Below, piece by piece: positions 6,702 to 32,000 of a stretch of 32,000 bases of DNA. This DNA comes from Candidatus Omnitrophota bacterium (GTDB lineage Bacteria; Omnitrophota; Gorgyraeia; Zapsychrales; JANLHA01): assembly GCA_963662715.1 (NCBI GenBank), contig OY759724.1, forward strand, positions 2,610,001-2,642,000. Reading direction: 5' to 3'. The notes below the pieces were generated by a model. That model saw only the letters and a list, made by a program, of their open reading frames with translations. It did no database searches and was not told the origin of the DNA. A program made the position numbers and the translations under genes. Position 1 is the stretch's first letter. Each line of letters starts with the position of its first letter.

Positions 6702-6726
6702 CTCAGGTTTATTCCTGAGTTTTTTT
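6702..6726 (+). terminator. weak intrinsic terminator after the PCP_red gene
   Basis: CTCAGG (6702-6707) / CCTGAG (6714-6719) 6-bp stem, 6-nt loop, then T7 (6720-6726). It overlaps the last codons of the convergent ATPase gene. Confidence 0.3.
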
Positions 6727-15299: not shown

Positions 15300-17234
15300 C
15301 TAGAAAAGGAAATGCCTTAACCCGAAGAAATAGGCGTCAAGCAGAATAACGGCGGTGATAACAAGGCCGAAGGAGCAGGTCGTGGCCAGACAGAGGATGA
15401 AATGAAGCGGAAAAAGGAAATGGAACAAATTGTGGCTGAATGAACGGTGCTCGAAAACCAGGTTGTTTAGCCCGTAATACCTCCAGTTGTAATTGGTGAT
15501 GCGGTCTTCTCTCAGCAGCTTGTAGTATATCTGGGAGCCCGGTAAAGGCGTTAAGACCGAAATGATGGTCAGATAAGGCATAATAAAAAAACAGTATTTC
15601 CATATATGCAACATCGTGTGATAATTATCCGCTTCAAATCCGAGGATGAAGTGCGCTTTGATCGTGATCCCCGTTTTTTTGACTTTCTTGGTTAACTCAA
15701 TATACTGATCGGCCAAAGAAAATTTGCCTTTCTTGTGCTTCTCCCGTGATTCTCCGGTGATTTCATATCCGAACAACAGCTGAACACAGCCGCTTTCCTT
15801 CGCCAGTCTTAAAAGTTCTTCATCCTTGGCAATATCAATGGAACATTGGCTGGCCCAGGAGATTTCTAAAGGGATGAGCGCTCTGAAAAGCTCCTTGGCA
15901 TATTCAGGGTCTGCAATGATGTTATTATCGATAAAGGACAGGATCTGGTTCCGGCGCGGATGTATTTTCTGGATTAAGGCCACAACCTCCTCGACAGGCT
16001 TTTTCCTGACGACACCTTTTGTGAACAGGGGGATCGTGCAGAAATGGCAGTGGTATTTGCACCCCCGTGTGGTTTCCAGGAAGTCTTTGATAACGGCCGG
16101 AGGAGAGTTCAGCAGTTCCTGCTGAACATGGCGGTGAAAATCCTCCAAGGGAACGCCCTGGTAGATGCTTTTCAGGGTGTGATTTTCATAATCCCTGACC
16201 ACTTCCGTCCAGACGCTTTCGGCTTCACCGGTAACAACAGCATCGCAAAATTGCAGGGCTTCCTGCGGAAGGTAGGTGACATGCGGCCCGCCCATGACGA
16301 CCGTCGAACCACGTTTTTTAAATTCCTTGGCGATTTTATAAGCCTCACAGCAGTTTGAGGTGTAACAGGTCACGGCAACGAGTTTATTCCCTCGATAGAA
16401 TCTTTTTTTCCAGCTGATTTTATTGAACTCTTTGAAGTGATAGCCCTTGGGCGTCAGAGCCTTTAAGGTCAGGAAAAAGGGGGGGTACCAGCGGAACAGC
16501 AGAGAAGCGTCTCCTAACACGATCCCTCCGGAAACAGGGTTGACAAGATAGATCTCTTTTTCTTTGTCAAAGTGTTTTTCGATATCCGCATAACGGTCCA
16601 GGATAGTCATGGAAAAATATGTGAAGATAAAGAAATGCAGATAGGTATAGATGACAATAGGTTCATTACTGAGGAAGTCAATGGGGAAAAATTTTTTTAC
16701 GTTGCCGATCAGGATATTTAAGATAAATAAAACGGTCACGGAAAGAATATGCCCGGGGGGAACGGCTATTTTTTTATAAGGAAGCCCGAATTTTCTTATA
16801 TATTTATCCCTGATGATGAAAAAGCTGATCAGATAAATAAAGAATAAATCAAAAAAGAAATTGTCATAAAGAAACGCCAGATTGAACGCATTAAAAAATA
16901 CGGCAAAAAAGATATTCGCGCAAAAATGCAGGATCAGCAAGGGGAGATAAATTTTCCAGTAACGTCTGGCATTCTTGAAGAAAATCTTATTTGTTATGGC
17001 AACCTGTTCTTGGCTGGCAAGCTCGATAATGGTGCCGTACATCCCGCTGAAAAGAAATATTTTAAGGAATATTAAAAGGAACATGAACAGGACGGTCAGG
17101 CCAGGGGAGGCGGAAATAAAGGCAGGAGGGTCAACAAACAGGACGTGCAGGAAACAGGCGATTAACAGAAACAGAAGCGCGGAATGCAGGATGTCAAAAC
17201 TTTTAAGCAAAATTGTCCATGCCCCGTTTTTCAT
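15300..17234 (-). CDS. B12-binding (class B) radical SAM enzyme with N-terminal multi-TM domain and C-terminal TM helix (paralogue of 1832-3751)
   Basis: 644 aa. CKYHCHFC cluster motif. B12-binding region KLVAVTCYTSNCCEAYKIAKEFKKRGSTVVMGGPHVTYLPQEAL...VVTGEAESVW. Co-linear with 1832-3751 along the whole length, including the TM domain motif MYGTIIELA/VYGTIIELV. Confidence 0.85.
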   Translation of the reverse strand: MKNGAWTILLKSFDILHSALLFLLIACFLHVLFVDPPAFISASPGLTVLFMFLLIFLKIFLFSGMYGTIIELASQEQVAITNKIFFKNARRYWKIYLPLLILHFCANIFFAVFFNAFNLAFLYDNFFFDLFFIYLISFFIIRDKYIRKFGLPYKKIAVPPGHILSVTVLFILNILIGNVKKFFPIDFLSNEPIVIYTYLHFFIFTYFSMTILDRYADIEKHFDKEKEIYLVNPVSGGIVLGDASLLFRWYPPFFLTLKALTPKGYHFKEFNKISWKKRFYRGNKLVAVTCYTSNCCEAYKIAKEFKKRGSTVVMGGPHVTYLPQEALQFCDAVVTGEAESVWTEVVRDYENHTLKSIYQGVPLEDFHRHVQQELLNSPPAVIKDFLETTRGCKYHCHFCTIPLFTKGVVRKKPVEEVVALIQKIHPRRNQILSFIDNNIIADPEYAKELFRALIPLEISWASQCSIDIAKDEELLRLAKESGCVQLLFGYEITGESREKHKKGKFSLADQYIELTKKVKKTGITIKAHFILGFEADNYHTMLHIWKYCFFIMPYLTIISVLTPLPGSQIYYKLLREDRITNYNWRYYGLNNLVFEHRSFSHNLFHFLFPLHFILCLATTCSFGLVITAVILLDAYFFGLRHFLF

Positions 17235-17454: not shown

Positions 17455-17901
17455 ATGAGAAGATTTCCTCTCTGTGTCGGTCTGATCCTGACACTTGCTA
17501 TCGCAGGTTGCACTACGGCGCCAAAGACTTTTATGCGGACACATGACGAACCCGGTATCTGGAAGACGGTTGATATCCGGGAAGGGATAGAGAACGATAA
17601 GATTTGGGAAACTCTGGTTGATACCTTAAGCCAAAAATACGATTTGGAAGTCCTGGAAAAAGATGCCGGATATATCCGTTCCTCTTGGAAATACTCTTAC
17701 TATTCCGGAGGCCAGGTGATCGACCGGTACCGCTCCCGTATCGTTGTGAAAGTCAAGGGAACTCCGGAATGGGATACGGTTCAGGTAAAGTGTGAATCTA
17801 ACTGGTTAGACAGCAAAGGCTGGATTCTCGGTTATGATACCCGGTTGTTGGAAGATATTTACGGTGATATTCAAGGAAAATTGGGCCGCGTAAGAAGATA
17901 A
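17455..17901 (+). CDS. lipoprotein, function unknown
   Basis: MRRFPLCVGLILTLAIAGC has a lipobox (LAIAGC). RBS AAAGGAGAA lies 6 nt upstream. 148 aa. Confidence 0.7.
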   Translation: MRRFPLCVGLILTLAIAGCTTAPKTFMRTHDEPGIWKTVDIREGIENDKIWETLVDTLSQKYDLEVLEKDAGYIRSSWKYSYYSGGQVIDRYRSRIVVKVKGTPEWDTVQVKCESNWLDSKGWILGYDTRLLEDIYGDIQGKLGRVRR

Positions 17902-17920
17902 AATTTTATGTTGTAAAAAA

Positions 17921-17952
17921 GGCCGCTTACTCATGTAAGCGGCCTTTTTTTT
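17921..17952 (+). terminator. rho-independent terminator
   Basis: GGCCGCTTA (17921-17929) / TAAGCGGCC (17936-17944) perfect 9-bp stem, 6-nt loop, T8 tail (17945-17952). It is preceded by an A6 run, so it may work bidirectionally. Confidence 0.85.
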
Positions 17953-18532
17953 GTCATTTTCCGGTTAATAAAGGGATGACCTCCGGGTGCAGCAAAAACC
18001 GTTCTGCCATAACCCCGATATTTTTTGTTTTTTTATGAGGATATATATTTTTGACTTCTTCGATGATATTTTCCTTCTAATAGTTTAGACACATAAAGCC
18101 GTGAAAAGTTTCGGTTTTTTTGGGGAATATCAGCTGTATTCTGAAAAATAATAGGTAAATGATGAATTAGTTTTATTTAAAGTTAAAAAATGTCAGAATA
18201 ATGTCGAGTTAAACCATTGTTTAAATTAATTTTTTTTATATAATAAATAAAAGGACACTCCTTTTACTTAATTTTTATGAGAAAGATTAAATTTTGCCTT
18301 GCCTGTAAAGAAAGTATGTATTTATGAGGTTTTCTAAAAACCACAGTATTTATTTTTTCTGTCCTAAAAGTATTATTCCGCCGATTTCTAATTTTATCCA
18401 TTCCTTATATATCATTTTATATATCACTTTCTTTTTTCCTGAAAATGAGAAGTTTTTTTATAAAGGCAAAGGACTGTGATAACAAAAGTTCATAAACAGT
18501 TTAGGGTACGATATAACAAAAGGAGAAGTTAA

Positions 18533-20317
18533 ATGATGTGTCTTGGGAAAAGAACCTGTCTGGCTGTTTTCGTGATGTTTTGTCTTGTGGGGATGACAAA
18601 ATTAAGTTTTGCCGACCTTATTTTGTGGAATAAATTAGGCACAGAGGATGAAATTTTGCATAGTGAGATCGGTGAAAGTTTATCTTGGACCGGCAGTGAA
18701 GAATACCAGGATTGTCAATATAATATGGGATCATATAGTAATGATAATTCTAACTACATAACTTTTCCAGGAACAGGTTTCACTCCGAATGCTTTTACTG
18801 TGGAGTTTTGGTTGAAAACAGATTGGGATTGTGTGAGTGGAACAGCTCAAGAGACAGGGTATTATTCTTACTTTCAGTGGTATTATGATAATGATAATCG
18901 AATTATGGCTCAAATTGATCATACGGGATGTTACCTTAATATTAGAGGAGAAGGTGTGCATAATTATCAATATTGGACACCTTCGCAGTTAAATTGGCAA
19001 GCTGGGGATATTGTTCATTTGGCTTGGGTATATAATCGTGATGGAATAGACGGGACCACAGATACGAAACGTCTATATTTTAATGGAAATGTCGTTGCCT
19101 CAACAACAGAACAACCAGAGGCGTTTTCTGTTTCTGGAGGAATGTTTTATCTTTTACAGCATCAAGATTTAAGCCGTACACTGAAGGGAACGGTTGATAA
19201 TTTAAAAATATATGATTATGCCAAGACAGATTTTTCCGACCGGTTCAATGAAGGGACAGCCTTGAGTATTACGCTCGAACCGCTGGAAGCGGTTGATGCC
19301 GGCGCACAGTGGCGGTTGACGGGCGGGCCGGATACGGACTGGCATGACAGTGAAGAAACCCTGCTGAACCTTCCTGCCGGAACATATAATTTGAACTTCA
19401 AGAATGTTATCGGCTGGGCCAAGCCGTCCAATCAGACTATAGAAATCATCGAAGGTCAGGCAACAACAGCAACCGGAACGTATGAATTATTGGCAAAAAG
19501 TTCCGTGACCTGTCTTATAGAACCTCCGGAAGCGATTGCTGATGGTGCCAAATGGAAACTGACAACCGGGCCGGATACGGAGTGGCATGAGAGCGGGGAA
19601 GTGCTTAATGATATTCCGGTGGGCAGTTATAAAGTGAAGTTTAAAAATATTTACGGTTGGGAGAAACCTGTCAACCAAACGATTGAAGTTGTGGAAGGAG
19701 TGACGGCCGAAGCATACGGCCTTTATGAACTACTGCCGCTTAGTTCGGTAACGGTAATCATAGAACCTCCTGGGGCTGTAGCCGATGGGGCAAAATGGCG
19801 GTTAACCAAAGGGCCGGATACGGGCTGGCATGAGAGTGGGGATATTATTACGGATATCCCGATCGGGACATATAACATTCGGTTTAAGACTATCACGGGG
19901 TGGGCCAAGCCGGAAGATCAGGCCCTAGAGATAGTCGAAGGTGTAATAGCCGAAGGATATGGAGAATATACCTTGCTGCCGTTGAGTTCGATGACCTGCA
20001 CGATCGAACCGCCGGATGCTGTAGCAGCGGGAGCGCAGTGGCGGTTAACGGGTGGGCCGGATACATCCTGGCATGCAAGCGGGGATGTATTAAATGATAT
20101 CCCGATCGGTAACTATACCATTAAGTTTAAGACAATTTACGGCTGGGAGAAGCCGGTGAATCAAAGTATCGAGGTCGTGGAAGGTTCCACAGCTTCTGCC
20201 ACAGGAATATATACAGAGGTAACGGCTAAAGGGAGTGTGAGTATTACGATTGAACCGCCGGAAGCCGTGGCAGTTGGAGCGCAGTGGCGGTTAATGAGCG
20301 GGCCGGATAACGTATAA
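18533..20317 (+). pseudogene. 5' fragment of a giant secreted adhesin-like gene (signal peptide, LamG/ConA-like domain, repeats 1 to 5a), interrupted by IS256-family insertion
   Basis: RBS AAGGAGA. Signal peptide MMCLGKRTCLAVFVMFCLVGMTKLSFA. LamG-like motifs TVEFWLKTDW, IVHLAWVYNRDG, RLYFNGNVVAS, GTVDNLKIYDYA. The frame runs 4 codons into the IS end (PDNV*). Confidence 0.8.
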
Positions 20318-20340
20318 TATTTTTCGCACATTTGCAGAAG

Positions 20341-20370
20341 GGACAAAAAAAGTCCTCCAATTGGTATAAT
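20341..20370 (+). promoter_or_regulatory. candidate transposase promoter inside the left IS end
   Basis: Extended -10 TGgTATAAT (20362-20370) with a partial -35 GGACAA (20341-20346). Confidence 0.35.
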
Positions 20371-20407
20371 AACTAGGCAACCAAACCTAACCAAAAAGGA
20401 GGACTCA

Positions 20408-21598
20408 ATGAACAATACTATTATTACAGTTAATGAAGAAAAAATCCAAGAAAAACTTGATGAGAAGATTCGGGGCAGCGTGGAAGAGACATTGAATAAT
20501 TTATTGAATGCAGAAGCCGATCACTTGGTTGGAGCCGAGAGATATCAACGCACAGAAGCCCGGAAGGACACACGGGCGGGCTATTATGAGCGGCAATTGC
20601 AGACACGAGTAGGAAAAGTAAAATTAAGAATGCCGAAGCTAAGAAAATTACCGTTTGAGACAGCCATAGTTGAACGATATAAACGACGAGAGATATCAGT
20701 AGAAGAAGCGATGATGGAGATGTATTTAGCAGGAGTGTCGGTAAGACGAGTTGAAGATATAACTGAAGCATTATGGGGATCAAAAGTATCGGCTAGCACA
20801 GTCAGCCGAGTAAACAAGAAGATCTATGAACGGATCAATCAATGGAGACATGAGCCTTTAGATGAAGAATATCCGTATGTTTATATGGATGGGATTAGCT
20901 TAAAGCGGAGCTGGGGTGGTGAAGTCAGCAATGTATCCGTCTTAATTGCCATAGGAGTTGATTGGCATGGATATCGAAAGATCATCGGGATTATAGAGGG
21001 GGCCCGGGAAGACAAGACGGGATGGCAAGCGTTGATGAGACATTTAAAGCAACGAGGACTTAACCGGATTCAATTATTGATCACCGATAAATGTCTGGGA
21101 TTGCTCAATGCCGCAGAAGAAATATATCCCATGGCTAAATGGCAAAGATGTATGGTTCATTTCTACAGAAATGTTTTCCGTTATGTGCCAAACGGAAAAA
21201 TTAAGACGGTTGCCACCATGCTAAAAGCTATTCATGCCCAAGAATGTTCGTCAGCCGCCTTTAACAAAGCCCAGGCGATTTATCAAAAACTCAAAGAGAT
21301 GAAGTTAAATAAAGCCGCCGAATGTGTTAATGAAGGCATTGGTGAGACTTTAACATACATGGACTTCCCGGTAGAACATTGGATACGGATTCGAACGAAT
21401 AATCCAATGGAGCGGATTATCAGAGAGATACGAAGAAGAACGCGGGTTGTGGGATGTTTTCCAGATGGGGAATCAGCATTAATGTTAGCTTCCGGACGGT
21501 TACGCCATATTGCAGGAACATACTGGAGTCAAAAAAAGTATTTGAACATGGATTACTTACGCAAGCAGCGGCTGCTCCCGGAACTCGCAGCAGTTTGA
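20408..21598 (+). CDS. IS256-family (Mutator-type) transposase
   Basis: 396 aa. Characteristic N-terminus ...LNNLLNAEADHLVGAERYQRTEARKDTRAGYYERQLQTRVGKVKLRMPKLR, then MEMYLAGVSVRRVEDITEALWG, YVYMDGISLKRSW, LLITDKCLGL, WQRCMVHFYRN, NPMERIIREIRRRTRVV. RBS AAGGAGGA. Confidence 0.95.
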   Translation: MNNTIITVNEEKIQEKLDEKIRGSVEETLNNLLNAEADHLVGAERYQRTEARKDTRAGYYERQLQTRVGKVKLRMPKLRKLPFETAIVERYKRREISVEEAMMEMYLAGVSVRRVEDITEALWGSKVSASTVSRVNKKIYERINQWRHEPLDEEYPYVYMDGISLKRSWGGEVSNVSVLIAIGVDWHGYRKIIGIIEGAREDKTGWQALMRHLKQRGLNRIQLLITDKCLGLLNAAEEIYPMAKWQRCMVHFYRNVFRYVPNGKIKTVATMLKAIHAQECSSAAFNKAQAIYQKLKEMKLNKAAECVNEGIGETLTYMDFPVEHWIRIRTNNPMERIIREIRRRTRVVGCFPDGESALMLASGRLRHIAGTYWSQKKYLNMDYLRKQRLLPELAAV

Positions 21599-21634
21599 GG
21601 ACTTTTTTGTTCCTTTAAATGTGCGAAAAATTCG

Positions 21635-24301
21635 TTGCACTACCGCGGGCCGGACACGGGCTGGCACAACAGCGGTGACACTGTAGATGATATTTGTGTT
21701 GGGAATTATGTCATTAAATTCAACACGGTTTACGGCTGGGAGAAGCCGGCTAATATTAATATTGAAGTGACCGAAGGGAACACAACAACGGCCACAGGAA
21801 TTTATACGGAGATTGCCGCCAAAGGATCTGTGAGCGTGACCATAACCCCTCCGGAAGCTATTGCAGAAGGAGCAATGTGGCGGTTAACGAGCGGGCCGGA
21901 TACATCCTGGCATGCAAGCGGGGAGACAATCAGTGATGTTTGTGTCGGGACGTATTATGTGAAATTTAAGAATATCTATGGCTGGATCGCTCCTGAGAAA
22001 CAAACTATTGAGATCACCGAAGGGAGTACGGCAACGGCGAGCGGGAATTATGAGCAGATCACCGAGAAAGGATTTGTGAGTGTGACCATAACTCCTCCGG
22101 AAGCCATTGCGGAAGGGGCGCAATGGCGTTTGACCGCTGGCCCGGATACGAGCTGGCATGGCAGCGGAGATGTGATCAATGATATCTGTGTTGGAAATAT
22201 CACGGTTAAATTCAAAAATATTTATGGCTGGATCAAGCCGGATAATCAGACAATCACGATAGAAGCCAATCAGACCAGCTATGCAACGGGCGAATATGAA
22301 CTCATCACAGAGTTCGGATCAATCAGCGCGACGATCGAGCCGCAGGGGGCCATAGATGACGGGGCGCAATGGCGGATGATAGTTGGGTCGGATACGGACT
22401 GGCATGACAGCGGGGACGTGATTGCGGATGTTCCTGTCGGGACGTATAAGATCAAGTACCGCAATATCGCAGACTGGACCAAACCGGACAATCAAACGGT
22501 TGAGGTCTTGGAAGGGGAGACCGCCACAACAACAGGCGTTTATGAACCTATTGTTCAGTCCATGATCTTTGGCGTGAGTGATGTGGAGTGGGGCCCAACA
22601 TCACATTATCTTGATGGAGAAATCAGTATTGGTGATTACTATATGAATGATGTCCAGGTGTTTATGGCCCATAAACCCGATGCTATCTATTCTGGATATT
22701 ATGATGAATATTCAAATATATCGTTCCGATTATCTAGTAGAGATACATCTAATCAAATACTAAGAATTGAAATATATTCTGTCATTTTTGATACTATGCA
22801 AGAAAATACATTGGTACGAACACTTATTGAAAATCAACCTGTAATGTTGGACCCAGATCCTTCTACGGGAGGGTATTCTAAATATTTTGAAAATTTTACA
22901 AGTTGGGACGGTCTAGATGATAATGGGCAAAATATTATGCCAGGATTTTATAAGCTTAAAGTAATTATGAATGAAGATAACAGTTGGAATGGAGAGGTTG
23001 AATTCGGTGATAATTTTGAGATTATTCCTAGACGTTTTTTAAGGAGTCCAATAAAAAAATCTGTATTTCGATTTATCGGAACAGATCTTGAAGAGGGTAT
23101 TAGTTCAGGTCTATATCCAATTTATAAATCAATTCCACCTTCCCCATACAATTATGTCCCTGCTGCCTACCCCCAGGTGACTTCGTGTGATTATGCCATT
23201 CAAGATTATGATTTTAAACACTCTTTTGCCTATGAAGGATTGTCTTCGAGTGAAATTAATATTCTTTTTGACGAATTATTAATAGTGAATGGTTATATTA
23301 ACCAACAATATTTTGTTCAGTATTATGGATCTCCAGCAACAATGATTCTTCCCCCTGAATTTGAGCCTTACAGAGAAGATATCTACGATATCTTATTAAA
23401 TCTTTATCCTCAGCATGATGGTAATATTTGGCATCAGTTCTACAACCTAGGGCTGTCAGTATCGGAAGTCAAAGAACTCGTCAAAGAAGTTATTTTTAAT
23501 GGTTATAATATCCTTGTTTTTCCAGAAATAACCATCCAAGAAAATTTTAGACAATTAACTAATCCTTCAGAGATGAATCTTTCCCCAGCATATGATGGTT
23601 ATAAAGATGAGATTTTCAGCATTTTATATTCAGCAGATGTTTTAAATGAATATGGATGGATGGGACATTGTTGGCGTGGTCCCAACGGCGTTCCAATGTA
23701 TGAAGGCCCTATTCAACATGGAATGCAAGCTGATTCTCTCTTTTATTTTAATGGTGTGCAAGGAGGCTTTTGCATCTGTGGGGAGCCAGAAACAATGCCG
23801 GAAGGAGAGTGTGGATATTGTTTGGAACCTTGGGCATGTTATGAAGAAGGACAGATATGTGATTCTTACGGAAGAATAGAGTATCCTTTTCCATACTGGG
23901 GGCAAGGTGAAGTGCCGGTAGAAGTCGATTATTATGGATATATTCATGCTCCTGTTGCCGGGACATATAAACTTCGTCTTTATGCCGATGATTCAGCAAC
24001 AATGAGTTTGGGCGGTGATCTGAATGTCTTAGGATATGTCTATGATATTACACTTTCAGGAGGAACAGTGCTTGGCACGGCAGATGCATCAAATAATAAC
24101 ACATTAGATACTGAAATAACTTTAGAACCTGGCTATTATCCAGTTGAGATAAATTTTAATAATACGGAAGGCAACAGCACATTAAATCTTTACTGGAATC
24201 TCCGGAGTGCGAATAACCAGAACTTTATTTTCATCGACCCGACGTTTATCCAGGAGAGTCAGGAAAATGCCCAGGCCTTTGAGGCGTTTATGGGGAATTA
24301 A
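21635..24301 (+). pseudogene. 3' fragment of the interrupted adhesin-like gene (repeats 5b-8, AT-rich middle region, C-terminal PA14-like domain)
   Basis: The TTG at 21635 lies inside the IS end and is not a real start; native sequence resumes at 21645. Same frame as fragment 1 (the direct-repeat copies are 1347 nt = 449 codons apart). PA14-like C-terminus at nt ~23888-24250: YYGYIHAPVAGTYKLRLYADDSATMSLGG...ITLEPGYYPVEINFNNTEGNSTLNLYW. Confidence 0.8.
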
Positions 24302-24578
24302 TGAGTTTATAGAAAACAAGGATATAATAATAATTCTTTGATATCTGTGATATATTCGGTTAAAATTTTCTGCCGATTCGGTCTTTTTGGACCTTTAGCT
24401 CTGTCGTTGTTCAGATACAACGCATTCGTTCACGGTTCCAAGTTCACTCATGCATTACATCTGAATCGGTACCGATTTTTCGCGGTGAATATTGGAACAC
24501 GAAACGACAAGTGACGCACTTAATTAACAATTGAGTATTATGTCTCTATAATTAGAAATATAAGGAGTAAAGGACTCT

Positions 24579-25829
24579 ATGGATCAATATAAAAGAGTGG
24601 AAATAATTTTATTGGTGGCATTGGGATGGGTATTCCAGGTCACTCCAGCGTTAACTGAACCGGTAAATTGTGAAATGTTAGTCGAAGAAGCGGTGGATGC
24701 GTTTAGAGAAGGGGATATAGAGGAGGCTCGTTTATATACCCAAGACGTCATTCGGTCTTGTCAGGTAAAAGCTAGCGCTCAACAAAGGGATTTAAGAAAA
24801 CAATTCCCGCATGAATTACAATTGTGGTTTTCTTCCACAGAAACAGGATTGTACGATAAAAAAGTATTGCCTCAAGGAGTCTTGGATGAGCGCCTTGTTT
24901 CAATTGGCTGGGAAGAACTCAATGCTGTCGGCAAAGCTCTTTTTATTGAAGCAGAAATATATAAGCAGGAAGGCAGAGATAAAGAAGCCCGTCAACAATA
25001 TCAAGAGATTATTAATAAGTACCCAGATGCTTATCAAAGGGCCTATCAAGGCTGGTTTTGGAAATTGTCAGAATTAGCCCAAGACGCTATCGACCTTACG
25101 GGGACTGATTATGATTACGAAGATTATCAGGCAGAGACTCTGATCAAGAAAGCATGGGGGGCCTTTTATAGAAAGGATTATGAAGGGGTTCAGTTATACG
25201 CCCGGAAGTGCTTGCGCTTATATGATCACCCCGGTCTAAATTATCAAAACGAATCTTCTGTGAGCCATTTCCTTCTGGGGAAAACGTATTTAAATGAGAA
25301 AAATGCCGGACAGGCTAAAATAGAATTTAAAAAAACCATTGAAAATTATCCCGAAACCATTTATCCAAATGTTAAAAATTATCCGTATTTCAACAATATC
25401 ACCCAAAAAGCAAAGGATCAGTTGGCTTTAATGGAAACTCTTTATGATTTCGGGAATTATACTACCGAGACTTTAACGATTAAAGCCTGGAAGAGCTGGG
25501 ACCGCGAAGATTATCGAGGCGTGGAACTGTATGCGAACAAATGTATTGAACTCTGGGCCGCCCGAGCCCGTGAGATGCAAAAAAAGATGCAGGGATTTGC
25601 CCGCGGCAGTTTTATCCCTTATTACTGGGCGGTTAATGACATCGGGACCTGCCATTTTATTTTAGCGATGACATATCAAAAGCAAAAGCAATTTGCTAAA
25701 GCCCACCAGATGTATCAAACCGTCATTGATGATTTTGCTTACGCTCAGTGCTGGGACCCGCGAGGACATTATTGGAAAGTGGCGGAAGTCAGCCAGGAAA
25801 GACTGGATGAATTAAATAACCAAAAATAG
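24579..25829 (+). CDS. secreted TPR-like (BamD/YbgF-style) repeat protein with a 3-fold internal repeat
   Basis: RBS AAGGAG. Hydrophobic N-terminus IILLVALGWVFQVTPALT. Repeated blocks AVDAFREGDIEEARLYTQDVI / KAWGAFYRKDYEGVQLYARKCL / KAWKSWDREDYRGVELYANKCI, and ...EARQQYQEIINKYPDAY / QAKIEFKKTIENYPETIY / KAHQMYQTVIDDFAYAQ. Confidence 0.7.
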   Translation: MDQYKRVEIILLVALGWVFQVTPALTEPVNCEMLVEEAVDAFREGDIEEARLYTQDVIRSCQVKASAQQRDLRKQFPHELQLWFSSTETGLYDKKVLPQGVLDERLVSIGWEELNAVGKALFIEAEIYKQEGRDKEARQQYQEIINKYPDAYQRAYQGWFWKLSELAQDAIDLTGTDYDYEDYQAETLIKKAWGAFYRKDYEGVQLYARKCLRLYDHPGLNYQNESSVSHFLLGKTYLNEKNAGQAKIEFKKTIENYPETIYPNVKNYPYFNNITQKAKDQLALMETLYDFGNYTTETLTIKAWKSWDREDYRGVELYANKCIELWAARAREMQKKMQGFARGSFIPYYWAVNDIGTCHFILAMTYQKQKQFAKAHQMYQTVIDDFAYAQCWDPRGHYWKVAEVSQERLDELNNQK

Positions 25830-25864
25830 AGTTTGTTTTCGAACAGGCGGTTGAATACGATAAA

Positions 25865-28111
25865 ATGATAGTCCTCTTATGCCTGCTGTTATTTGTTCCC
25901 CCGAGTGCTTATGCTCAGGATCCCCCCGCGACTTCTCTCGTGGCAGAAATAGAAGTCCCTTCAGCTCATGCTTTAGTGCGCGGGGACGTCCCTGTCTATG
26001 GCCGTGCTTACGGACCGGCTTTTAAAGAGTTCTTCTTGGAATATGGACAAGGACCTGCTCCTCAGGAATGGAGTTTAATTCATCACTCAACTGAGCCGCA
26101 AGAGACATTGAAGGGATTGTCATCTGTAAACTTTGATTTAGTAAAAACTGTAGCCGGGAATTTGGGGATGTGGACCACGGGATTGACCGAATACGATTAT
26201 GGTGATTATGATGTTGACCTTCCGATCGGCACATATACTTTACGCTTGAGGGTGGTGGACATCTCCGGTAGAGAAGTTGAAATGCGGGTTCCTGTTGAAG
26301 TGGGCCGGGTAGCTTTAAACTGTATGGCCAACAGGATTGACAGTCCAGACCAAGAGGCGGTTTTATTGATCCCGGAACACGCTATGGAAGTTCCGGCAAA
26401 AGTGTTTGCGTTAATATCCATCCCAACCCCTACACATATTCAAAACAGTAGCGAGAATTTTAAATTAGTAAGCCGATTGTTCCGTTTAAGGCCGGTGGGA
26501 ATGCCGTTCACTTTACCGGTCCGTTTAAACATTCAATATGACCCGCTTAAGGTGAAGGAGCCCGGGCATGTCGGGATATGCGCTTATAATGTCCGACAGA
26601 AGATGTGGGCTGTTTACCCGTCAATTTTGCTCCCAGAAGGGGCTGCCGAGACCGTGCTTGAATCTATCCCAGATGAGTTGGCTATCTTCGGCGTATTCGA
26701 AAGTCAGGAGATCGATAATAAAACATGGCAGGAACAGCCTGGACCAGTGAGGAAAATTGTCTGGACAACATTATGCCATAATACTTTTGATGATGGGCCG
26801 GGGAGTTGGAAGAACAAGCATGGCTCCAAAGGCGCGCAACTGGAGGTTATGGACTGCGGTCCTTCACAGGGGAAATGTTTAAAATTGAGTAATAGGCCCG
26901 GAGAAGGGAATTTTGCCGCACAGGCGTATGATCAGGACTTTGATGCGGGCCGATATCCTTATCTTGACTTTGATTATAATATCCCGCCTGAAGTAAAGGT
27001 GAACGTGTTGTTGAAAGTCAACGGGCAATGGTTTGATATTGTTTTCACTGATGATGAAAAGACTTACTGGGATTTGCATATGGAAAAGATCGGAACAGTG
27101 GAAGATGCTCATAGAGATAGGGCGTGGCATCATGCGCGTCTGAACATTTATAATATGCTTAAAGGCCATACCGAATCTTTTCTCGTGGAAGAGATTGTTT
27201 TTGCTGATTGGGATTCGACGGGTTTTAAACAATTAGAATTCGGCACAACTCCAAAAGGGGCGCAGTATTTTATCGATAATTTTAAGATTAGTTCCTCTCA
27301 GTATTTCTGGCAAATAGGATGGGACGATCATTCGGCAGAAGAATTTGGAGCCCCTTTGATCCGGGACGCAAAATATACTTATATGTTACAGCAACCTTTC
27401 AAAACTTTTCCCAAGGAATGGCCTGAGGATGTCACGATCAAATTTTCTGTGCCGAAGGATATCCCGGAAATGTCGTATCGGTTGACAATAAAATTTGTCG
27501 ACTCTCAAACACGGCTGACACAGCCTGAGATGAGAATAGCGAATAATCAAGTTCTAATTCCACAAGGCCATATTATGATATCCCCGAATCGTCTTGATGT
27601 TATTCTGGATTCTCTTGCTCCCGGGGCCCATTCCCTTCGAATTAAGAATTTGGCCGTAGATGGATATCTGGATTCTCTATCCTTATGTCCTCTAGGGCCG
27701 GGGCCTTGGGTCCTGGCGACGGTTCCCCAGGATGAAAAACAACAATGCCTTTTTCTGGGGGAATCATTTGAGCCGCAGAATTCCCAAACACTTAGTCTTT
27801 ATCATGAGGATCGGTTAATTCTGTATTTTTATCCCCTTTCATTAGAATCCCGGTATAAAATAGAAATTATTCCTGTCCCTCATCGGGGGCTGTCCGAAAG
27901 TTCCTGGTTGAACTTAAGAAAGATGCAGGTATTTATCAATAATGAAATGTTTAAAGAGGTGATTTATGGAAATACTGACCATGCGTTAGAATTTTTAATT
28001 CCGGAAAAGTATTTAAGAAAAGGTATAAACTCAGTGTCTTTTCAATCTGCTCCATCCCAGGGGATTTTTTTGAAAAAAATTACTATTTTGAAGGATCCGG
28101 CGGCTCAATAA
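25865..28111 (+). CDS. large secreted protein, unknown function (N-terminal Ig-like beta-sandwich; central jelly-roll/CBM-like region ending YFIDNFKI)
   Basis: Signal peptide MIVLLCLLLFVPPSAYAQDP. It starts 35 nt after the TPR gene, so it is probably co-transcribed. IGTYTLRLRVVDISGREVEMRVPVEV is typical of Ig-like surface domains. No family confidently recognised. Confidence 0.65.
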   Translation: MIVLLCLLLFVPPSAYAQDPPATSLVAEIEVPSAHALVRGDVPVYGRAYGPAFKEFFLEYGQGPAPQEWSLIHHSTEPQETLKGLSSVNFDLVKTVAGNLGMWTTGLTEYDYGDYDVDLPIGTYTLRLRVVDISGREVEMRVPVEVGRVALNCMANRIDSPDQEAVLLIPEHAMEVPAKVFALISIPTPTHIQNSSENFKLVSRLFRLRPVGMPFTLPVRLNIQYDPLKVKEPGHVGICAYNVRQKMWAVYPSILLPEGAAETVLESIPDELAIFGVFESQEIDNKTWQEQPGPVRKIVWTTLCHNTFDDGPGSWKNKHGSKGAQLEVMDCGPSQGKCLKLSNRPGEGNFAAQAYDQDFDAGRYPYLDFDYNIPPEVKVNVLLKVNGQWFDIVFTDDEKTYWDLHMEKIGTVEDAHRDRAWHHARLNIYNMLKGHTESFLVEEIVFADWDSTGFKQLEFGTTPKGAQYFIDNFKISSSQYFWQIGWDDHSAEEFGAPLIRDAKYTYMLQQPFKTFPKEWPEDVTIKFSVPKDIPEMSYRLTIKFVDSQTRLTQPEMRIANNQVLIPQGHIMISPNRLDVILDSLAPGAHSLRIKNLAVDGYLDSLSLCPLGPGPWVLATVPQDEKQQCLFLGESFEPQNSQTLSLYHEDRLILYFYPLSLESRYKIEIIPVPHRGLSESSWLNLRKMQVFINNEMFKEVIYGNTDHALEFLIPEKYLRKGINSVSFQSAPSQGIFLKKITILKDPAAQ

Positions 28112-28211
28112 AGCTGTTTGCCGTGAATAACGTTATTTATGCTTTTTGAGTTTCTTCGGGAATATCTTTAAGACACGATTGGCCATGAATTGTGAATAAT
28201 AAGGGGGGAGC

Positions 28212-28240
28212 TTGCAATTGTCTGTTGAATGTTTTATATT
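28212..28240 (+). promoter_or_regulatory. candidate sigma70-type promoter for the riboswitch-regulated transcript
   Basis: TTGCAA (28212-28217), exactly 17-nt spacer, TATATT (28235-28240). It is about 30 nt upstream of the aptamer. Confidence 0.45.
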
Positions 28241-28269
28241 TTAACTGAGCAAGAATCGCTGATGCTTGA

Positions 28270-28360
28270 CTATGACGAAAAGGCAAACCCATCGTAAGGT
28301 GGGGACGCAAAGCTGAAGGATCCTGTCAAAGTAAGGATAGCCTGGCTACCGAATCGACTT
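28270..28360 (+). promoter_or_regulatory. c-di-GMP-I (GEMM-I) riboswitch aptamer
   Basis: ACGAAAAGGCAAACC-CAUC-GUAA-GGUGGG-GACGCAAAGC...AUCCU-GUCAAAGUA-AGGAU-AGCCUGGCUACCGAAUCG. Compare V. cholerae Vc2: ACGCACAGGGCAAACC-AUUC-GAAA-GAGUGG-GACGCAAAGCC...GCGGGGUUACCGAUGG. It has a 6-bp hairpin capped by the GNRA loop GUAA, the conserved ACGCAAAGC junction, a second hairpin, and the conserved 3' UACCGA. I could not define the P1 stem cleanly by eye. Confidence 0.8.
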
Positions 28361-28377
28361 AATTACCAGACAATTTT

Positions 28378-28415
28378 GCCTAATCCTGCTATTGAAGGAT
28401 TAGGCTTTTATATTT
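28378..28415 (+). terminator. intrinsic terminator serving as the riboswitch expression platform
   Basis: GCCTAATCC (28378-28386) / GGATTAGGC (28397-28405) perfect 9-bp stem, 10-nt loop, then TTTTATATTTT. It lies between the aptamer and the RBS AGGGAGGGA / ATG 28431. Confidence 0.7.
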
Positions 28416-28430
28416 TAAAGGGAGGGAGAC

Positions 28431-29240
28431 ATGAAAAAAAAGATTTTAGTGGTAGACGACGAACGGGACGTCGTGCAGTTCATGAGCCGCAAGCTTGAGC
28501 GGGCCAATTACATGCCGTTCATTGCTTTCGACGGTAAAGACGGGTTCGATATCGCCCGGGTGCAGGATATCGATCTTATCTGTACGGATATTGTTATGCC
28601 GGGACTGGATGGGTATCATTTCTTCAAGAAGTTAAAGGAGTCCAAGAAGAATGCCAATGTTCCTATCGTTGTTTTCAGTGCCTATGCCAACCACGAACAG
28701 ACCTTTAGAGAACTGGGCGCTTCGGATTTCCTGGCCAAGCCGTTTGACGGGCAGGCTCTGCTGGAGACTGTCGAGCGGATTCTGAAACGGGCCAGCCTGC
28801 AGAACACCATCAAAAGCGTGAAAGAAAAGGGGATAAGCGGAAAAATTTTATTGCATGTCGGACCGGGCAGTATTGTTCAGGATGTTGTACGCCTGATTCA
28901 GGATCCGGATTCTAAAATCGAAATAAAATGCGCGGAGAACAGCAAGGATCTTCTTGATGAAGCTCTCAGAAATCCTCCGGACGTTATTTTTGTCGATGCC
29001 TTGCGGGAGGATGTTCCTGCGCATAAGACAATCAAAATGTTCAGGAGTTATCCTCTGCTCAAGGATTTGACGATATTGGTCTATGCCAACACAACGGATG
29101 CGGAAAAGCAGAACAGGGGTTATGAAGCGCGGTTGGAGAAAATCAAGAAGCTTTGTCTGGAAGCCGGCGCTAATCAATTTGTCGGTCCTTTGACTCATGA
29201 GGTTTTGTTTTCGGCTTTAAACGATTATTGTACGAACTAG
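28431..29240 (+). CDS. response regulator: canonical REC domain plus C-terminal degenerate (pseudo-)receiver domain, no recognisable output domain
   Basis: REC1: ILVVDDERD, phospho-acceptor context DLICTDIVMPGLDG, VVFSA, AKPF. Second half: KILLHVGPGS (acidic pocket lost), DVIFVDAL, ILVYAN, ANQFVGPL, a receiver-like fold pattern. Confidence 0.85.
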   Translation: MKKKILVVDDERDVVQFMSRKLERANYMPFIAFDGKDGFDIARVQDIDLICTDIVMPGLDGYHFFKKLKESKKNANVPIVVFSAYANHEQTFRELGASDFLAKPFDGQALLETVERILKRASLQNTIKSVKEKGISGKILLHVGPGSIVQDVVRLIQDPDSKIEIKCAENSKDLLDEALRNPPDVIFVDALREDVPAHKTIKMFRSYPLLKDLTILVYANTTDAEKQNRGYEARLEKIKKLCLEAGANQFVGPLTHEVLFSALNDYCTN

Positions 29241-29312
29241 CGATATGCAGCGCCTTTGATTTTTTGCGTATTTGAAATAATATCATTTGTTAAGAAAGAA
29301 GGACATTGGAAA

Positions 29313-29350
29313 ACAGACAGCCGCGTTATCGCGGCTGTCTGTTCTTTTTA
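29313..29350 (+). terminator. strong rho-independent terminator after the response regulator gene
   Basis: ACAGACAGCCGCG (29313-29325) / CGCGGCTGTCTGT (29330-29342) perfect 13-bp stem, TTAT loop, then TCTTTTT. An A4 run on the 5' side allows some bidirectional activity. Confidence 0.8.
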
Positions 29351-29397
29351 TGTGTGTGTGGCTCTCCTGTCATGGGGTTCTTGTGTAATGACCCTAG

Positions 29398-30189
29398 TTA
29401 AGCAAGGATTTTTTTGTGTAGATCGAGTTCTTTGTTAATCCATCTTTTGTAAAACTCTTCAGGCGTAGCGAAGAATAATGCCTGATGAGGGAAATCGGTG
29501 TTGTAATCGTTGATCCAACGCTTGAAGTCATCTTGAAGATCAAATGGGTTGTCCCATTCATTGATCCAAATGAAATCTTCTTTGATTCTGCGGATGACGC
29601 GTTCGGTGTCAGCATTGCCTTTGGGGTTGGACCAGGTTGAGAAGATCTGCTTGATGCCGGCCAGTGAACAATTAAGCCTGAAGCGCCCGCTGGTGGGCTG
29701 ACAGCCATTGTCCGAGATCAGGTGCAGGTCATGATTCAGTGTGTCTTTGATGCCGTTTGGGAATCGGTTGTTGATGGCCATTTCCAGGGCATCCAGCCAG
29801 TCATCAGTCTTTGACTGGATGTTGAGGCTATAGCCGATAATTTCTTTGGTATACCAGTCTAGGACGATGGTCAGATAGAACCAGCCCCAGGTCGCCAGTT
29901 TGATTTTTGTCATATCGATACCCCAGAATTGATTGGGGTGAGAAGCTCGTGGTTTCCGGCGGAGGTTGCCACGCTTGGCCTTCAAGCGATCGTTGGGTTG
30001 AACCGTTAATTGATTTTCTTGCATGAGGCGTTGGACACAATTTTTGCCAATTTTGTAATGTTTACGGTTGTTTAAATAGGCCCAGACTGAACGGTATCCC
30101 CAGAGGGGATGTTGCTTTTTAATTTGTCGGATTTTGACTAAATGTTTTTGGTCTTGTTCGATACGCTTTAGAGAACGGCGTCTTTTCAT
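29398..30189 (-). CDS. IS3-family transposase OrfB (rve integrase core, DD(35)E)
   Basis: 263 aa. WGIDMT (D), LISDNGCQ (D), then E of NADTER exactly 35 residues later with K at +7. The ATG overlaps the OrfA stop (ATGA). The frame is open upstream back through the A9 run. Confidence 0.9.
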   Translation of the reverse strand: MKRRRSLKRIEQDQKHLVKIRQIKKQHPLWGYRSVWAYLNNRKHYKIGKNCVQRLMQENQLTVQPNDRLKAKRGNLRRKPRASHPNQFWGIDMTKIKLATWGWFYLTIVLDWYTKEIIGYSLNIQSKTDDWLDALEMAINNRFPNGIKDTLNHDLHLISDNGCQPTSGRFRLNCSLAGIKQIFSTWSNPKGNADTERVIRRIKEDFIWINEWDNPFDLQDDFKRWINDYNTDFPHQALFFATPEEFYKRWINKELDLHKKILA

Positions 30190-30461
30190 AACTCGTACTC
30201 GTTTTTTTTTAGTTCAACGGTCAAGTCGCCGATGATGCGTTTGAGTTTGGCGTTTTCTTTTTCAAGACGTTGCTCTTTCTGGGACTGTTGTTTGATGTCA
30301 AAGGCCATATGGCATTCTTTGAGGAACTGGTCGCGCCATTTGTAATATTGGGTTTGGCCAATTTGGTATTTGTTACAAAGTTTACTGATGTCGATTTTCC
30401 CGCTGAGGCCTTCAAGCACGATTTGGGTCTTTTGTTGGCTGGTCCATTGGCGTTTTTTCAT
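30186..30461 (-). CDS. IS3-family transposase OrfA (HTH plus leucine-zipper-like C-terminus)
   Basis: ATG at 30461 follows AAGGAG, with 10 nt between the AGGAG core and the ATG; I prefer it to the TTG at 30491. MKKRQWTSQQKTQIVLEGLSG...ISKLCNKYQIGQTQYYKWRDQF is typical of the IS3/IS911 OrfA HTH. The coiled-coil tail ends at the A9 slippery run (30202-30210). Confidence 0.85.
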   Translation of the reverse strand: MKKRQWTSQQKTQIVLEGLSGKIDISKLCNKYQIGQTQYYKWRDQFLKECHMAFDIKQQSQKEQRLEKENAKLKRIIGDLTVELKKNEYEL

Positions 30462-30528
30462 GGGAATTGGGCTCCTTTCCTTGGAACTCAATTCTACACC
30501 ATTTGTTTAAATTTGTTAACTAGGGTCA

Positions 30529-32000
30529 CTATACTTGTTCTTGCGGGAGATGCCTCATCCGGCGGGGTTTGCGGAATCCCAGCTTTCCCGTGATGGTCCG
30601 GTAGATATGAAAGAGATAGTACTTGGCATAAATGATGTGATCCGCTTCCTTTGTGAGCAATCCGGAGAGCAGGTCAAGCGTAAAAGCTATCCCTTCGTTA
30701 ATAAAAGGCGGAATCGCTTTGAAAAGACCCGGTTTAAGCTTTTTTCGGAATCTGACCGGTGTATAGGGAAGAAGTTTATAGATAACCTGGTAGATTTCGT
30801 AAATTTTGAGCTGGTCTTTGGAAATTAAATTATGGCTGTGTTTAAATGAATCCAGGGAAATGCCTTCATTTAACCGTTCGGCATCTTCGTGTGTGATAAG
30901 TCCCATCTCAAGAGCCGTTTTCTGAATGGCTGTCCCCGGATAAAAATTGACCCAGTAGGAATGGATTCTGGAGGGTGTGTTCCGGACATAGAACTGGCGG
31001 GCTGTCTCTTGCGCTTCGGGCGGTTCCCCGGGCAATCCCAGCATATGGTCTATGCGCGCCCGGATGCGGTATTTCTTTGTCAGGCGGATGATTTCGGCGG
31101 TTTTTTCTTTTGTCTCATGGCGTTTCAGATACTTGCGTTTGTATTCATCATCCAGGGACTGCACCCCTATCTGGGCGGCATAGCAGCCCGCGGCGGCGAG
31201 GCTTTTCACGGTCGGTTCGTCCAGATGGTTGACATGTGAGAAGATCTGGAAGGGTATCTGAATGTCTTTTTTATACGCTTCCAAGAAAGAATTCAGCCAT
31301 TTTTTATCAAACGTGAAAACATCATCAAAAAATTCTATCATACGGACGTTATACCGTTTTTTTGCCCAGCGCAGTTCCGTGAGCACATGATCGGCAGAAC
31401 GATAACGGACGTATTTCCCTTTATCTTTCTCCGGCAGATCTGCGAAAAAGCTGTTAAAGCAAAAGGTGCAGCGGTAGGGGCAGCCCCGGGACGCCATTGT
31501 GACATAATAGTCCGATAAATTAAAATAATCTTCCCATAAAGATTTATCGAAAAAGGGTAAGCTGTCCAGATCCTGAATAAATCCTGTCTGCGGGCCTTGA
31601 ATGATCTGTCCGTCAGCCGATTTGTATCTTGTGTTCGGCAGGGGAGAGGTGACCTCTCCTTTCTCAACCGCCTCCAGTATTTCTATAAAAGCGATATCCC
31701 CTTCTCCCAGGCAGATATAATCGACTTCCGGGCGGGCTATGACGCGTTCCGGAACGGCTGTCGTATGGACGCCGCCGAAAACTGTTTTGACGTGCGGGAA
31801 TATCTCTTTGGCTTTTTGTGCAATCGTGAGGGACCAGCGATAGGAACCTGAAAGGGGAGAAAAAGCAATGATGTCCGGCCGGTAATGTTCGATGGTATGC
31901 AGGACATCTTTTGTGTCATCAAAAAACCGGGATACAGGAGGGCAGGTCATATGCAGCCGGTCGTTGAATAAAGCAACACTGAAGGCCAAACGGACATCAT
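30529..32000 (-). CDS. B12-binding (class B) radical SAM enzyme, soluble type; 5' end beyond the window, 3' end altered by the IS3 insertion
   Basis: B12-binding region PDIIAFSPLSGSYRWSLTIAQKAKEIFPHVKTVFGGVHTT...YICLGEGDIAF. Cluster motif CPYRCTFC. The frame is open to the window edge (the track's start at 31989 is a TTG). The stop codon TAG (30529-30531) lies within the extended IS3 end. Confidence 0.85.
   Translation of the reverse strand, partial: DVRLAFSVALFNDRLHMTCPPVSRFFDDTKDVLHTIEHYRPDIIAFSPLSGSYRWSLTIAQKAKEIFPHVKTVFGGVHTTAVPERVIARPEVDYICLGEGDIAFIEILEAVEKGEVTSPLPNTRYKSADGQIIQGPQTGFIQDLDSLPFFDKSLWEDYFNLSDYYVTMASRGCPYRCTFCFNSFFADLPEKDKGKYVRYRSADHVLTELRWAKKRYNVRMIEFFDDVFTFDKKWLNSFLEAYKKDIQIPFQIFSHVNHLDEPTVKSLAAAGCYAAQIGVQSLDDEYKRKYLKRHETKEKTAEIIRLTKKYRIRARIDHMLGLPGEPPEAQETARQFYVRNTPSRIHSYWVNFYPGTAIQKTALEMGLITHEDAERLNEGISLDSFKHSHNLISKDQLKIYEIYQVIYKLLPYTPVRFRKKLKPGLFKAIPPFINEGIAFTLDLLSGLLTKEADHIIYAKYYLFHIYRTITGKLGFRKPRRMRHLPQEQV

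Follow-up and report, generated by a model that had tools for sequence, protein, structure and literature searches.

We analysed a stretch of 32,000 nucleotides (nt) from a Candidatus Omnitrophota bacterium (contig OY759724.1 of assembly GCA_963662715.1, positions 2,610,001 to 2,642,000; hereafter the window) and focused on positions 28212-28430. They form the leader of a gene for a 269-amino-acid (aa) protein, which joins an intact receiver (REC) domain to a degenerate receiver-like domain and resembles the stem of PleD. The leader is very probably a canonical class I cyclic di-GMP (c-di-GMP-I, or GEMM-I) riboswitch with its own promoter, controlling the monocistronic receiver/pseudo-receiver gene via an intrinsic terminator. 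On one strand, it carries a promoter-like site, the aptamer, the terminator, a ribosome-binding site and the ATG, in this order, and the leaders of related genes are organized alike. The presence of a GEMM-I aptamer followed by a terminator and a stand-alone REC-pseudoREC gene had been proposed earlier from the letters of the sequence (the original prediction). The Rfam match, the terminator scan, the RNA folds and the conservation in relatives concur with this proposal.

The riboswitch leader and its conservation

We scanned both strands of the complete window with 4227 Rfam families at gathering thresholds. The sole match in the 32 kb lies at 28273-28354 on the forward strand (E = 3.4e-12) and covers the full length of the model (positions 1-80 of 80). 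The top family is RF03167 (c-di-GMP-I-GGC, clan CL00126), with 60.8 bits against a cut-off of 59. The scan reports the best family per clan; a second CL00126 family also exceeds its own cut-off, and is presumably RF01051. A permissive scan of 28150-28450 recovered nothing beyond the aptamer except noise (E of at least 0.4).

According to the Rfam match, the folds and the leader alignment, the complete aptamer spans 28273-28356 on the forward strand. P1 pairs 28273-28277 with 28350-28356, P1a (P2) occupies 28283-28308 and is capped by a GUAA tetraloop, and P1b (P3) occupies 28311-28347. Every motif listed in the original prediction is present: GGCAAACC at 28282-28289, the GNRA-loop hairpin CCCAUC[GUAA]GGUGGG at 28288-28303, GACGCAAAGC at 28304-28313, the second hairpin at 28311-28347 and UACCGA at 28347-28352. 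Both P1a and P1b are recovered in the minimum free energy (MFE) and centroid folds, and agree with the Rfam structure line. The three-helix junction of P1, P1a and P1b, with a GNRA tetraloop on P1a, identifies the aptamer as c-di-GMP-I (GEMM-I) type 1.

The leader was aligned with those of four distinct relatives. The closest genomic relative of the protein, with 71% identity, is encoded in a metagenome-assembled genome (MAG) of Candidatus Omnitrophota (L001). Further proteins of about 70% identity come from an activated-sludge contig (L081), a MAG contig (L161) and two Logan contigs (L162 and L163, counted as one relative). L001 and L081 were the two close loci found when genome and metagenome contigs were scanned with the protein, and L161 and L162/L163 came from a large protein search. 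The named members of the relatives' protein clusters are annotated as Omnitrophota response regulators. In all relatives of about 70% identity a riboswitch match of 60.3-62.7 bits is found directly upstream of the gene.

In the five-leader alignment there is hardly any variation in the -10 region, in the aptamer or in the terminator stem. Divergence is seen in the 5' leader, in the linker that connects aptamer and terminator, in the Shine-Dalgarno spacing and in the 3' half of the terminator loop. Across the five leaders, 99.4% of the pair cells of P1, P1a, P1b and the terminator are paired, compared with 22-46% when the partners are slid by 1-3 columns. Three one-sided changes keep the pairing (U:G to U:A twice, U:A to U:G once), and the single non-standard pair cell is an A-G in P1b of L081. 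The tetraloop reads GUAA in the window and GCGA in the relatives, remaining a GNRA loop. While the flanks differ between the window and the relatives, the module of promoter, aptamer, terminator and gene is kept. These elements are a conserved self-contained unit in the Omnitrophota relatives. No riboswitch was found at a homologue of 38% identity (L164), even at E <= 1, or at the REC-REC homologues L002, L003 and L082-L084, so that only one shallow clade shows the association.

The leader begins with a sigma-70-like promoter at 28212-28240 (+), consisting of TTGCAA (-35), a 17-nt spacer and TATATT (-10). This promoter had been part of the original prediction. It matches the consensus at 9 of 12 positions, which is not significant alone: the scan gives 4 sites of this kind in 1.7 kb, where 3.5 are expected by chance. 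However, the promoter block TATATTTTAA and the TTG of the -35 element are invariant in the four related leaders, and all five leaders share an unchanged CTTG of the -35 element and an unchanged block TTTTATATTTTAA, while the sequence further upstream is unrelated. The invariance of the -35 TTG and TTTTATATTTTAA amid unrelated upstream sequence supports a real promoter. In each of the leaders a small hairpin precedes the aptamer, downstream of the predicted transcription start, at 28248-28271 in the window and at about 5811-5830 in L001. The sequences of these hairpins are unrelated: the window has GCAAG...CUUGAC, whereas L001 and L162 have AUUAUAA...UUAUAAU, and the fold is weaker in L081 and L161.

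Among the relatives, no other part of the leader diverges as much as the linker downstream of the aptamer (28357-28377, +). It is followed by an intrinsic terminator (28378-28416, +), recovered by the terminator scan, the folds and the conservation. Its stem is formed by GCCUAAUCCU (28378-28387) and AGGAUUAGGC (28396-28405) around an 8-nt loop, and the U-tract UUUUAUAUUUU (28406-28416) follows directly 3' of the stem. The terminator and its U-tract stand as originally described, while the stem has 10 bp by the scan instead of the 9 bp first counted. The hairpin appears in every full-leader fold of the window and the relatives. In the relatives its stem is 2 bp longer and is invariant apart from the closing pair, a U:A in the window and a U:G in the other leaders. 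The ribosome-binding site GGGAGGG (28421-28427, +), read from the sequence, lies 3 nt before the ATG and has purine-rich equivalents in the relatives.

Predicted ligand of the aptamer

The residues of the ligand pocket were assigned from the Rfam model columns and from an alignment to Vc2, the aptamer of the Vibrio cholerae tfoY leader. The equivalent of Vc2 G20 is G28282, that of A47 is A28309, and those of A91 and C92 are A28348 and C28349. The G28282 residue lies directly 5' of a paired GC and is invariant in the five leaders. This answers the question of the G20 position, which the original prediction had left undecided on account of a 1-nt gap in its alignment. The gap is real; it is located in the A-rich junction 5' of G20, which has 4 nt in the window and 5 in Vc2, and the assignment of G20 is unaffected by it. 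The motifs GGCAAACC, GACGCAAAGC and UACCGA are identical in Vc2 and in the RNA studied here, and both carry a GNRA tetraloop on P1a and the equivalents of G20, A47 and C92. They differ in the junction 5' of G20, which is one nt shorter here and has A for G19 of Vc2, in the sequence and loop of P1b, and in the intrinsic terminator that serves as the platform here.

The accepted pocket triad of this riboswitch class is G20, A47 and C92 (PMC11218506). The two guanines of the ligand are read by G20, at the Hoogsteen edge, and by C92, through a Watson-Crick pair (PMC6140456). The G at the position of Vc2 G20 thus makes c-di-GMP the predicted ligand rather than 3'3'-cyclic GMP-AMP (3'3'-cGAMP), with a pocket that, judging from its nucleotides, would be that of a wild-type c-di-GMP sensor. 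The GEMM-Ib riboswitches for 3'3'-cGAMP share their fold with c-di-GMP-I and are hard to separate from it by overall sequence (PMC7266159). However, cGAMP sensors have an A at position 20 (PMC6140456), whereas G28282 and its counterparts are G in the window and in all relatives. We therefore give next to no weight to the possibility that the RNA is a cGAMP sensor.

The nominal Rfam assignment raises another alternative, namely that the RNA belongs to the orphan c-di-GMP-I-GGC variant and binds a ligand other than c-di-GMP. RF03167 is indeed the top family both in the window and in 4 of 4 relatives, at 60.3-62.7 bits against the cut-off of 59, and it shares helix lengths and most conserved columns with the RNA. 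By score alone the RNA would be a member. However, the scores are merely 1-4 bits over the cut-off, and the second family of the clan passes its own cut-off as well. The two G residues that distinguish the variant are not found: at the G columns of the GGC consensus (ACGC-G-AAgC and cU-G-Cc), A is present both in the window and in every relative. These two A residues correspond to A47 and A91 of Vc2. The letters GGC are reportedly those of positions 20, 47 and 92 in the 2017 PNAS article of Weinberg et al., and this reading also draws on the consensus of the model. Membership in the variant is thus very improbable, and the marginally higher score of RF03167 is probably due to lineage-specific similarity elsewhere in the RNA. 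Automated Rfam annotation would nevertheless name this RNA an orphan GGC variant despite its wild-type binding-site nucleotides. Since it scores best on the GGC model and yet retains wild-type pocket residues, the aptamer lineage could be the immediate wild-type sister of the variant, an idea we hold to be doubtful. It is separate from the phosphate-sink reading of the protein discussed below, and our estimate is a joint one for the two. If true, such a sister aptamer would be a useful matched control for finding the ligand of the GGC variant.

Expression platform and direction of switching

The terminator starts 21 nt after P1 and has no nucleotide in common with the aptamer. The aptamer helices and the terminator are found together in the MFE structures of the full leaders, in the window and in every relative. 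Among characterized riboswitches, the aptamer and terminator of Cd1 coexist and the RNA is an OFF switch, whereas pilM is an ON switch with mutually exclusive folds (PMC9262584). The ability of aptamer and terminator to coexist, as in Cd1, favours ligand-induced termination. By this analogy we moderately favour an OFF switch. Control is inferred to act at transcription termination.

Cd1, from the flgB leader of Clostridioides difficile, is a transcriptional OFF switch (PMC9262584) and offers the closest parallel in design: a class I c-di-GMP aptamer and a separate intrinsic terminator whose folds coexist. It controls a flagellar operon, in contrast to the receiver protein here, and belongs to a host of a different phylum. 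The linker is much shorter here, at about 21 nt from P1 to the terminator, and while the anti-terminator of Cd1 is experimentally defined, the RNA studied here offers candidates only.

In the proposed mechanism, bound c-di-GMP would lock P1 and the junction. The left arm of the terminator would then be without a competitor, so that the hairpin would form and transcription would end before the gene. Without c-di-GMP, the unlocked junction strand GAAAAGGC and/or a strand of P1b may transiently pair with the emerging left arm GCCUAAUCCU, and this transient pairing would let some polymerases read through. High c-di-GMP would accordingly be expected to lower the amount of the PleD-stem-like receiver protein.

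The original prediction had proposed a specific 7-bp anti-terminator, in which AGGCAAA (28281-28287) pairs with UUUGCCU (28375-28381). This complementarity is present in the window, and RNAfold picks it on transcripts ending before the right arm of the terminator (-31.6 vs -26.8 kcal/mol). The helix is not conserved, however. Its UUU lies in the divergent linker and is replaced in the relatives by UUUAC, UAAC or UGAC, and the three AAA:UUU pairs are kept in 1, 1 and 3 of the 5 leaders. As a conserved mechanism the 7-bp helix is thus rejected, given the variation of its A:U pairs. When it is extended by GA:UC, 6 of the 9 pairs are invariant (AGGC:GCCU plus GA:UC) and 3 are not conserved. What remains is an invariant core, in which GAAAAGGC (28277-28284) stands opposite GCCUAAUC (28378-28385) with 6 pairs around a 2x2 A/A internal loop.

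Other duplexes of the left arm with aptamer strands, of -8 to -12 kcal/mol, are present in every leader. The candidate partners are the P1b 3' strand (AGGAU...GGC with GCC..AUCCU), the P1b 5' strand (AGC...AGGAU with AUCCUGCU) and the P1a 3' strand. The segment GCCUAAUCCUGCUAU (28378-28392), comprising the left arm and the 5' half of the loop, is invariant in 5 of 5 leaders, in contrast to the divergent linker and 3' half of the loop. The invariance of this segment beside a divergent linker argues for a second pairing partner. Separately, a resemblance is seen between the left arm of the terminator and the P1 3' strand (ACCGAAUC), and likewise between the right arm and the junction strand (GAAAAGGC).

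Two other modes of action have to be weighed against ligand-induced termination. In an ON switch, the terminator would form by default and be suppressed by bound c-di-GMP. Both polarities exist among c-di-GMP-I and related riboswitches (PMC9262584), and Bc1 has been modelled with terminators that form at low c-di-GMP (PMC11218506). In all full-length folds thermodynamics strongly favours the terminator, which makes default termination plausible. However, an ON switch requires the bound aptamer to sequester nucleotides of the terminator, and with the distance of 21 nt past P1 none are shared. All the alternative partners of the left arm lie inside the aptamer core, from which ligand binding would withdraw them. 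An extension of P1 into the left arm was looked for in the window and the relatives, and neither complementary nor shared nucleotides were found for it. These observations make the ON switch unlikely. Less likely still is that the aptamer is functional while the hairpin is a constitutive attenuator or a stabilizing structure, with control exerted by translation or RNA decay. Such a mode would be in line with the lack of a convincing conserved anti-terminator among the candidates, and some c-di-GMP-I riboswitches, such as Vc2, affect translation or RNA stability (bioRxiv 10.1101/617340; PMC11218506). On the other hand, a hairpin with a U-tract stands at the expected site of the expression platform and is conserved nucleotide for nucleotide, and in the folds no conserved segment pairs with the ribosome-binding site. 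Sequestration of the ribosome-binding site as a means of translational control was considered separately, and no consistent pairing for it was found in the leader folds.

Several points nevertheless weigh against the interpretation of the leader as a canonical c-di-GMP-I riboswitch working through its terminator. The promoter and terminator rules of Omnitrophota are assumed to be those of model bacteria. The nominal top Rfam model is that of the GGC variant, the ligand of which is not established. The five leaders, with their 4 distinct relatives and near-invariant aptamers, contain no compensatory double changes, and therefore give no independent covariation support. None of the anti-terminator candidates is clearly best or clearly conserved. 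Finally, the alternatives on partial transcripts are all less stable than the terminator, by about 11-13 kcal/mol, so that ligand-free read-through would have to be kinetic.

The regulated protein and its genomic surroundings

The protein encoded at 28431-29240 (+) was characterized from the open reading frame list, Pfam, homologue alignments and an AlphaFold model. It consists of an intact receiver (residues about 1-120) and a degenerate receiver-like domain (about 135-269), with a long helix between them. The N-terminal half matches Pfam Response_reg (PF00072) over residues 5-114 with 93.2 bits. The acidic pair, the phospho-acceptor Asp and the Lys are in place, with D9, D10, D53 and K103 invariant among the homologues, and the Ser is present in VVFSA. 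Taken alone, the C-terminal half yields a sub-threshold Response_reg match (15.5 bits, E = 0.02); aligned with REC-REC homologues, it corresponds column by column to their intact second receiver. This half has lost the MPxxDG turn. Its acidic pair is replaced (ILVVDD to LLHVGPGS), and G stands in place of the Lys of KP (GP). There is also an insertion of about 12 residues, and the Asp at the acceptor position is retained. Pfam detects neither GGDEF nor any other output domain in the protein.

In the AlphaFold model (predicted local distance difference test score, pLDDT, 85.5), a long helix connects two (beta-alpha)5 domains. The best matches of the model in the PDB are PleD structures, over about 280 columns with E of about 1e-16, where the D1 receiver and the D2 adaptor align to the two halves; proteins of the PleD family are also among the sequence matches. 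The REC-pseudoREC label given in the original prediction is therefore borne out by Pfam, the homologue alignment, the predicted fold and the match to PleD D1-D2. As in the PleD stem (structural match with E = 4e-17), where the D1 receiver is followed by the D2 adaptor pseudo-receiver, an intact receiver stands in tandem with a degenerate one. The protein differs from PleD in having no GGDEF domain, and the two are about 22% identical. The template modelling (TM) scores of 0.42-0.46 are modest because the relative placement of the two domains differs.

Downstream of the gene, the unit is closed by a strong intrinsic terminator at 29312-29353 (+; also delimited as 29312-29343), with a 14-bp stem containing 9 G-C pairs, followed by CUUUUUAUGU. 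The strength of this terminator indicates that the gene is monocistronic. The protein probably has a role in a phosphorelay, as a phosphoryl acceptor or adaptor. Two genes downstream of the receiver gene, the relatives encode a FIST protein and a PAS-HisKA-HATPase-REC hybrid kinase (6817-8807 in L161, 6975-8807 in L162). These are candidate phosphorelay partners, and the corresponding region lies past the end of the window. A protein of this kind, resembling the PleD stem without GGDEF, could be a phosphate sink or adaptor for the FIST protein and the hybrid kinase. This idea falls under the same doubtful joint estimate as that of a wild-type sister aptamer. If true, riboswitch control of the protein level would link c-di-GMP to a phosphorelay in Omnitrophota through a dedicated connection at the RNA level.

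The class of c-di-GMP-I riboswitches is large and well studied, and its members accompany genes of very different kinds (PMC7266159). Terminator-based OFF and ON versions have been characterized (PMC9262584; PMC11218506). In C. difficile, operons under c-di-GMP riboswitches encode response regulators, which are thought to relay the signal (PMC6200980). As in the window, a second-messenger riboswitch is found upstream of the response regulator genes CD630_32650 and CD630_32670. Those regulators have DNA-binding domains and are encoded in operons, in contrast to the monocistronic gene here, the product of which has no output domain. The riboswitch control of a receiver protein pointed out in the original prediction thus has a precedent in C. 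difficile (PMC6200980). Both c-di-GMP-I riboswitches with terminators and riboswitch-controlled response-regulator genes have already been described, and the finding brings no new principle. What is new is the instance only: an Omnitrophota-like host, and an output-less PleD-stem-like receiver/pseudo-receiver protein as the sole regulated product. A full-text literature search for Omnitrophota and c-di-GMP returned nothing on riboswitches. The riboswitch would put a stand-alone receiver/pseudo-receiver protein in the c-di-GMP regulon of an Omnitrophota-like bacterium. This phylum is mostly known via metagenome-assembled genomes. The riboswitch also offers a cheap and testable handle on c-di-GMP signalling there.

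The gene order in the relatives runs from a ParA/T2SSE-type ATPase, a 199-212-aa protein, a B12-binding radical SAM enzyme (-) and a 148-aa protein to the riboswitch-REC unit, a second B12-binding radical SAM enzyme (-), the FIST protein and the PAS-HisKA-HATPase-REC hybrid kinase. This backbone is also found in the window, where two insertions interrupt it. One is a block of about 10.3 kb (17950-28200) between the 148-aa gene and the riboswitch, which is absent from the syntenic L161 and L162. It encodes a LamG protein (18533-20317), a Mutator-family transposase (20408-21598), a PA14/GLEYA protein (21635-24301), a TPR protein (24579-25829) and a 748-aa ZU5-like protein (25865-28111), and looks like a mobile or variable surface-protein island. 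The adhesin-like operon noted earlier directly upstream of the riboswitch does adjoin it in the window, yet the link is not a conserved one: the adhesin-like genes lie inside the insertion, which the relatives do not have, and are therefore a strain-specific neighbour outside the conserved unit. The other insertion is an IS3-type element (29398-30491, -) between the terminator of the REC gene and the radical SAM gene, likewise missing from the relatives. It comprises orfA (30186-30491) with HTH_Tnp_1 and orfB (29398-30189) with rve.

In the relatives the 148-aa gene is located directly upstream of the riboswitch promoter. Its counterpart in the window (17509-17901, +) has no Pfam match, is followed by its own terminator (17915-17951) and encodes a protein 90% identical to that of L161, while neighbouring genes are only 49-70% identical. 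Genes for GGDEF, EAL or PilZ proteins were looked for in the window and none were seen. The window encodes three paralogous B12-binding radical SAM enzymes (1832-3751, 15300-17234 and 30529-31989, all -) and two tandem ATPases of about 725 aa that are fusions of ParA/MinD-like and T2SSE parts (6709-8880 and 8902-11082, -). Genes of both kinds, for radical SAM enzymes and for a ParA/T2SSE-type ATPase, are likewise found on the flanks of the riboswitch module in the relatives.

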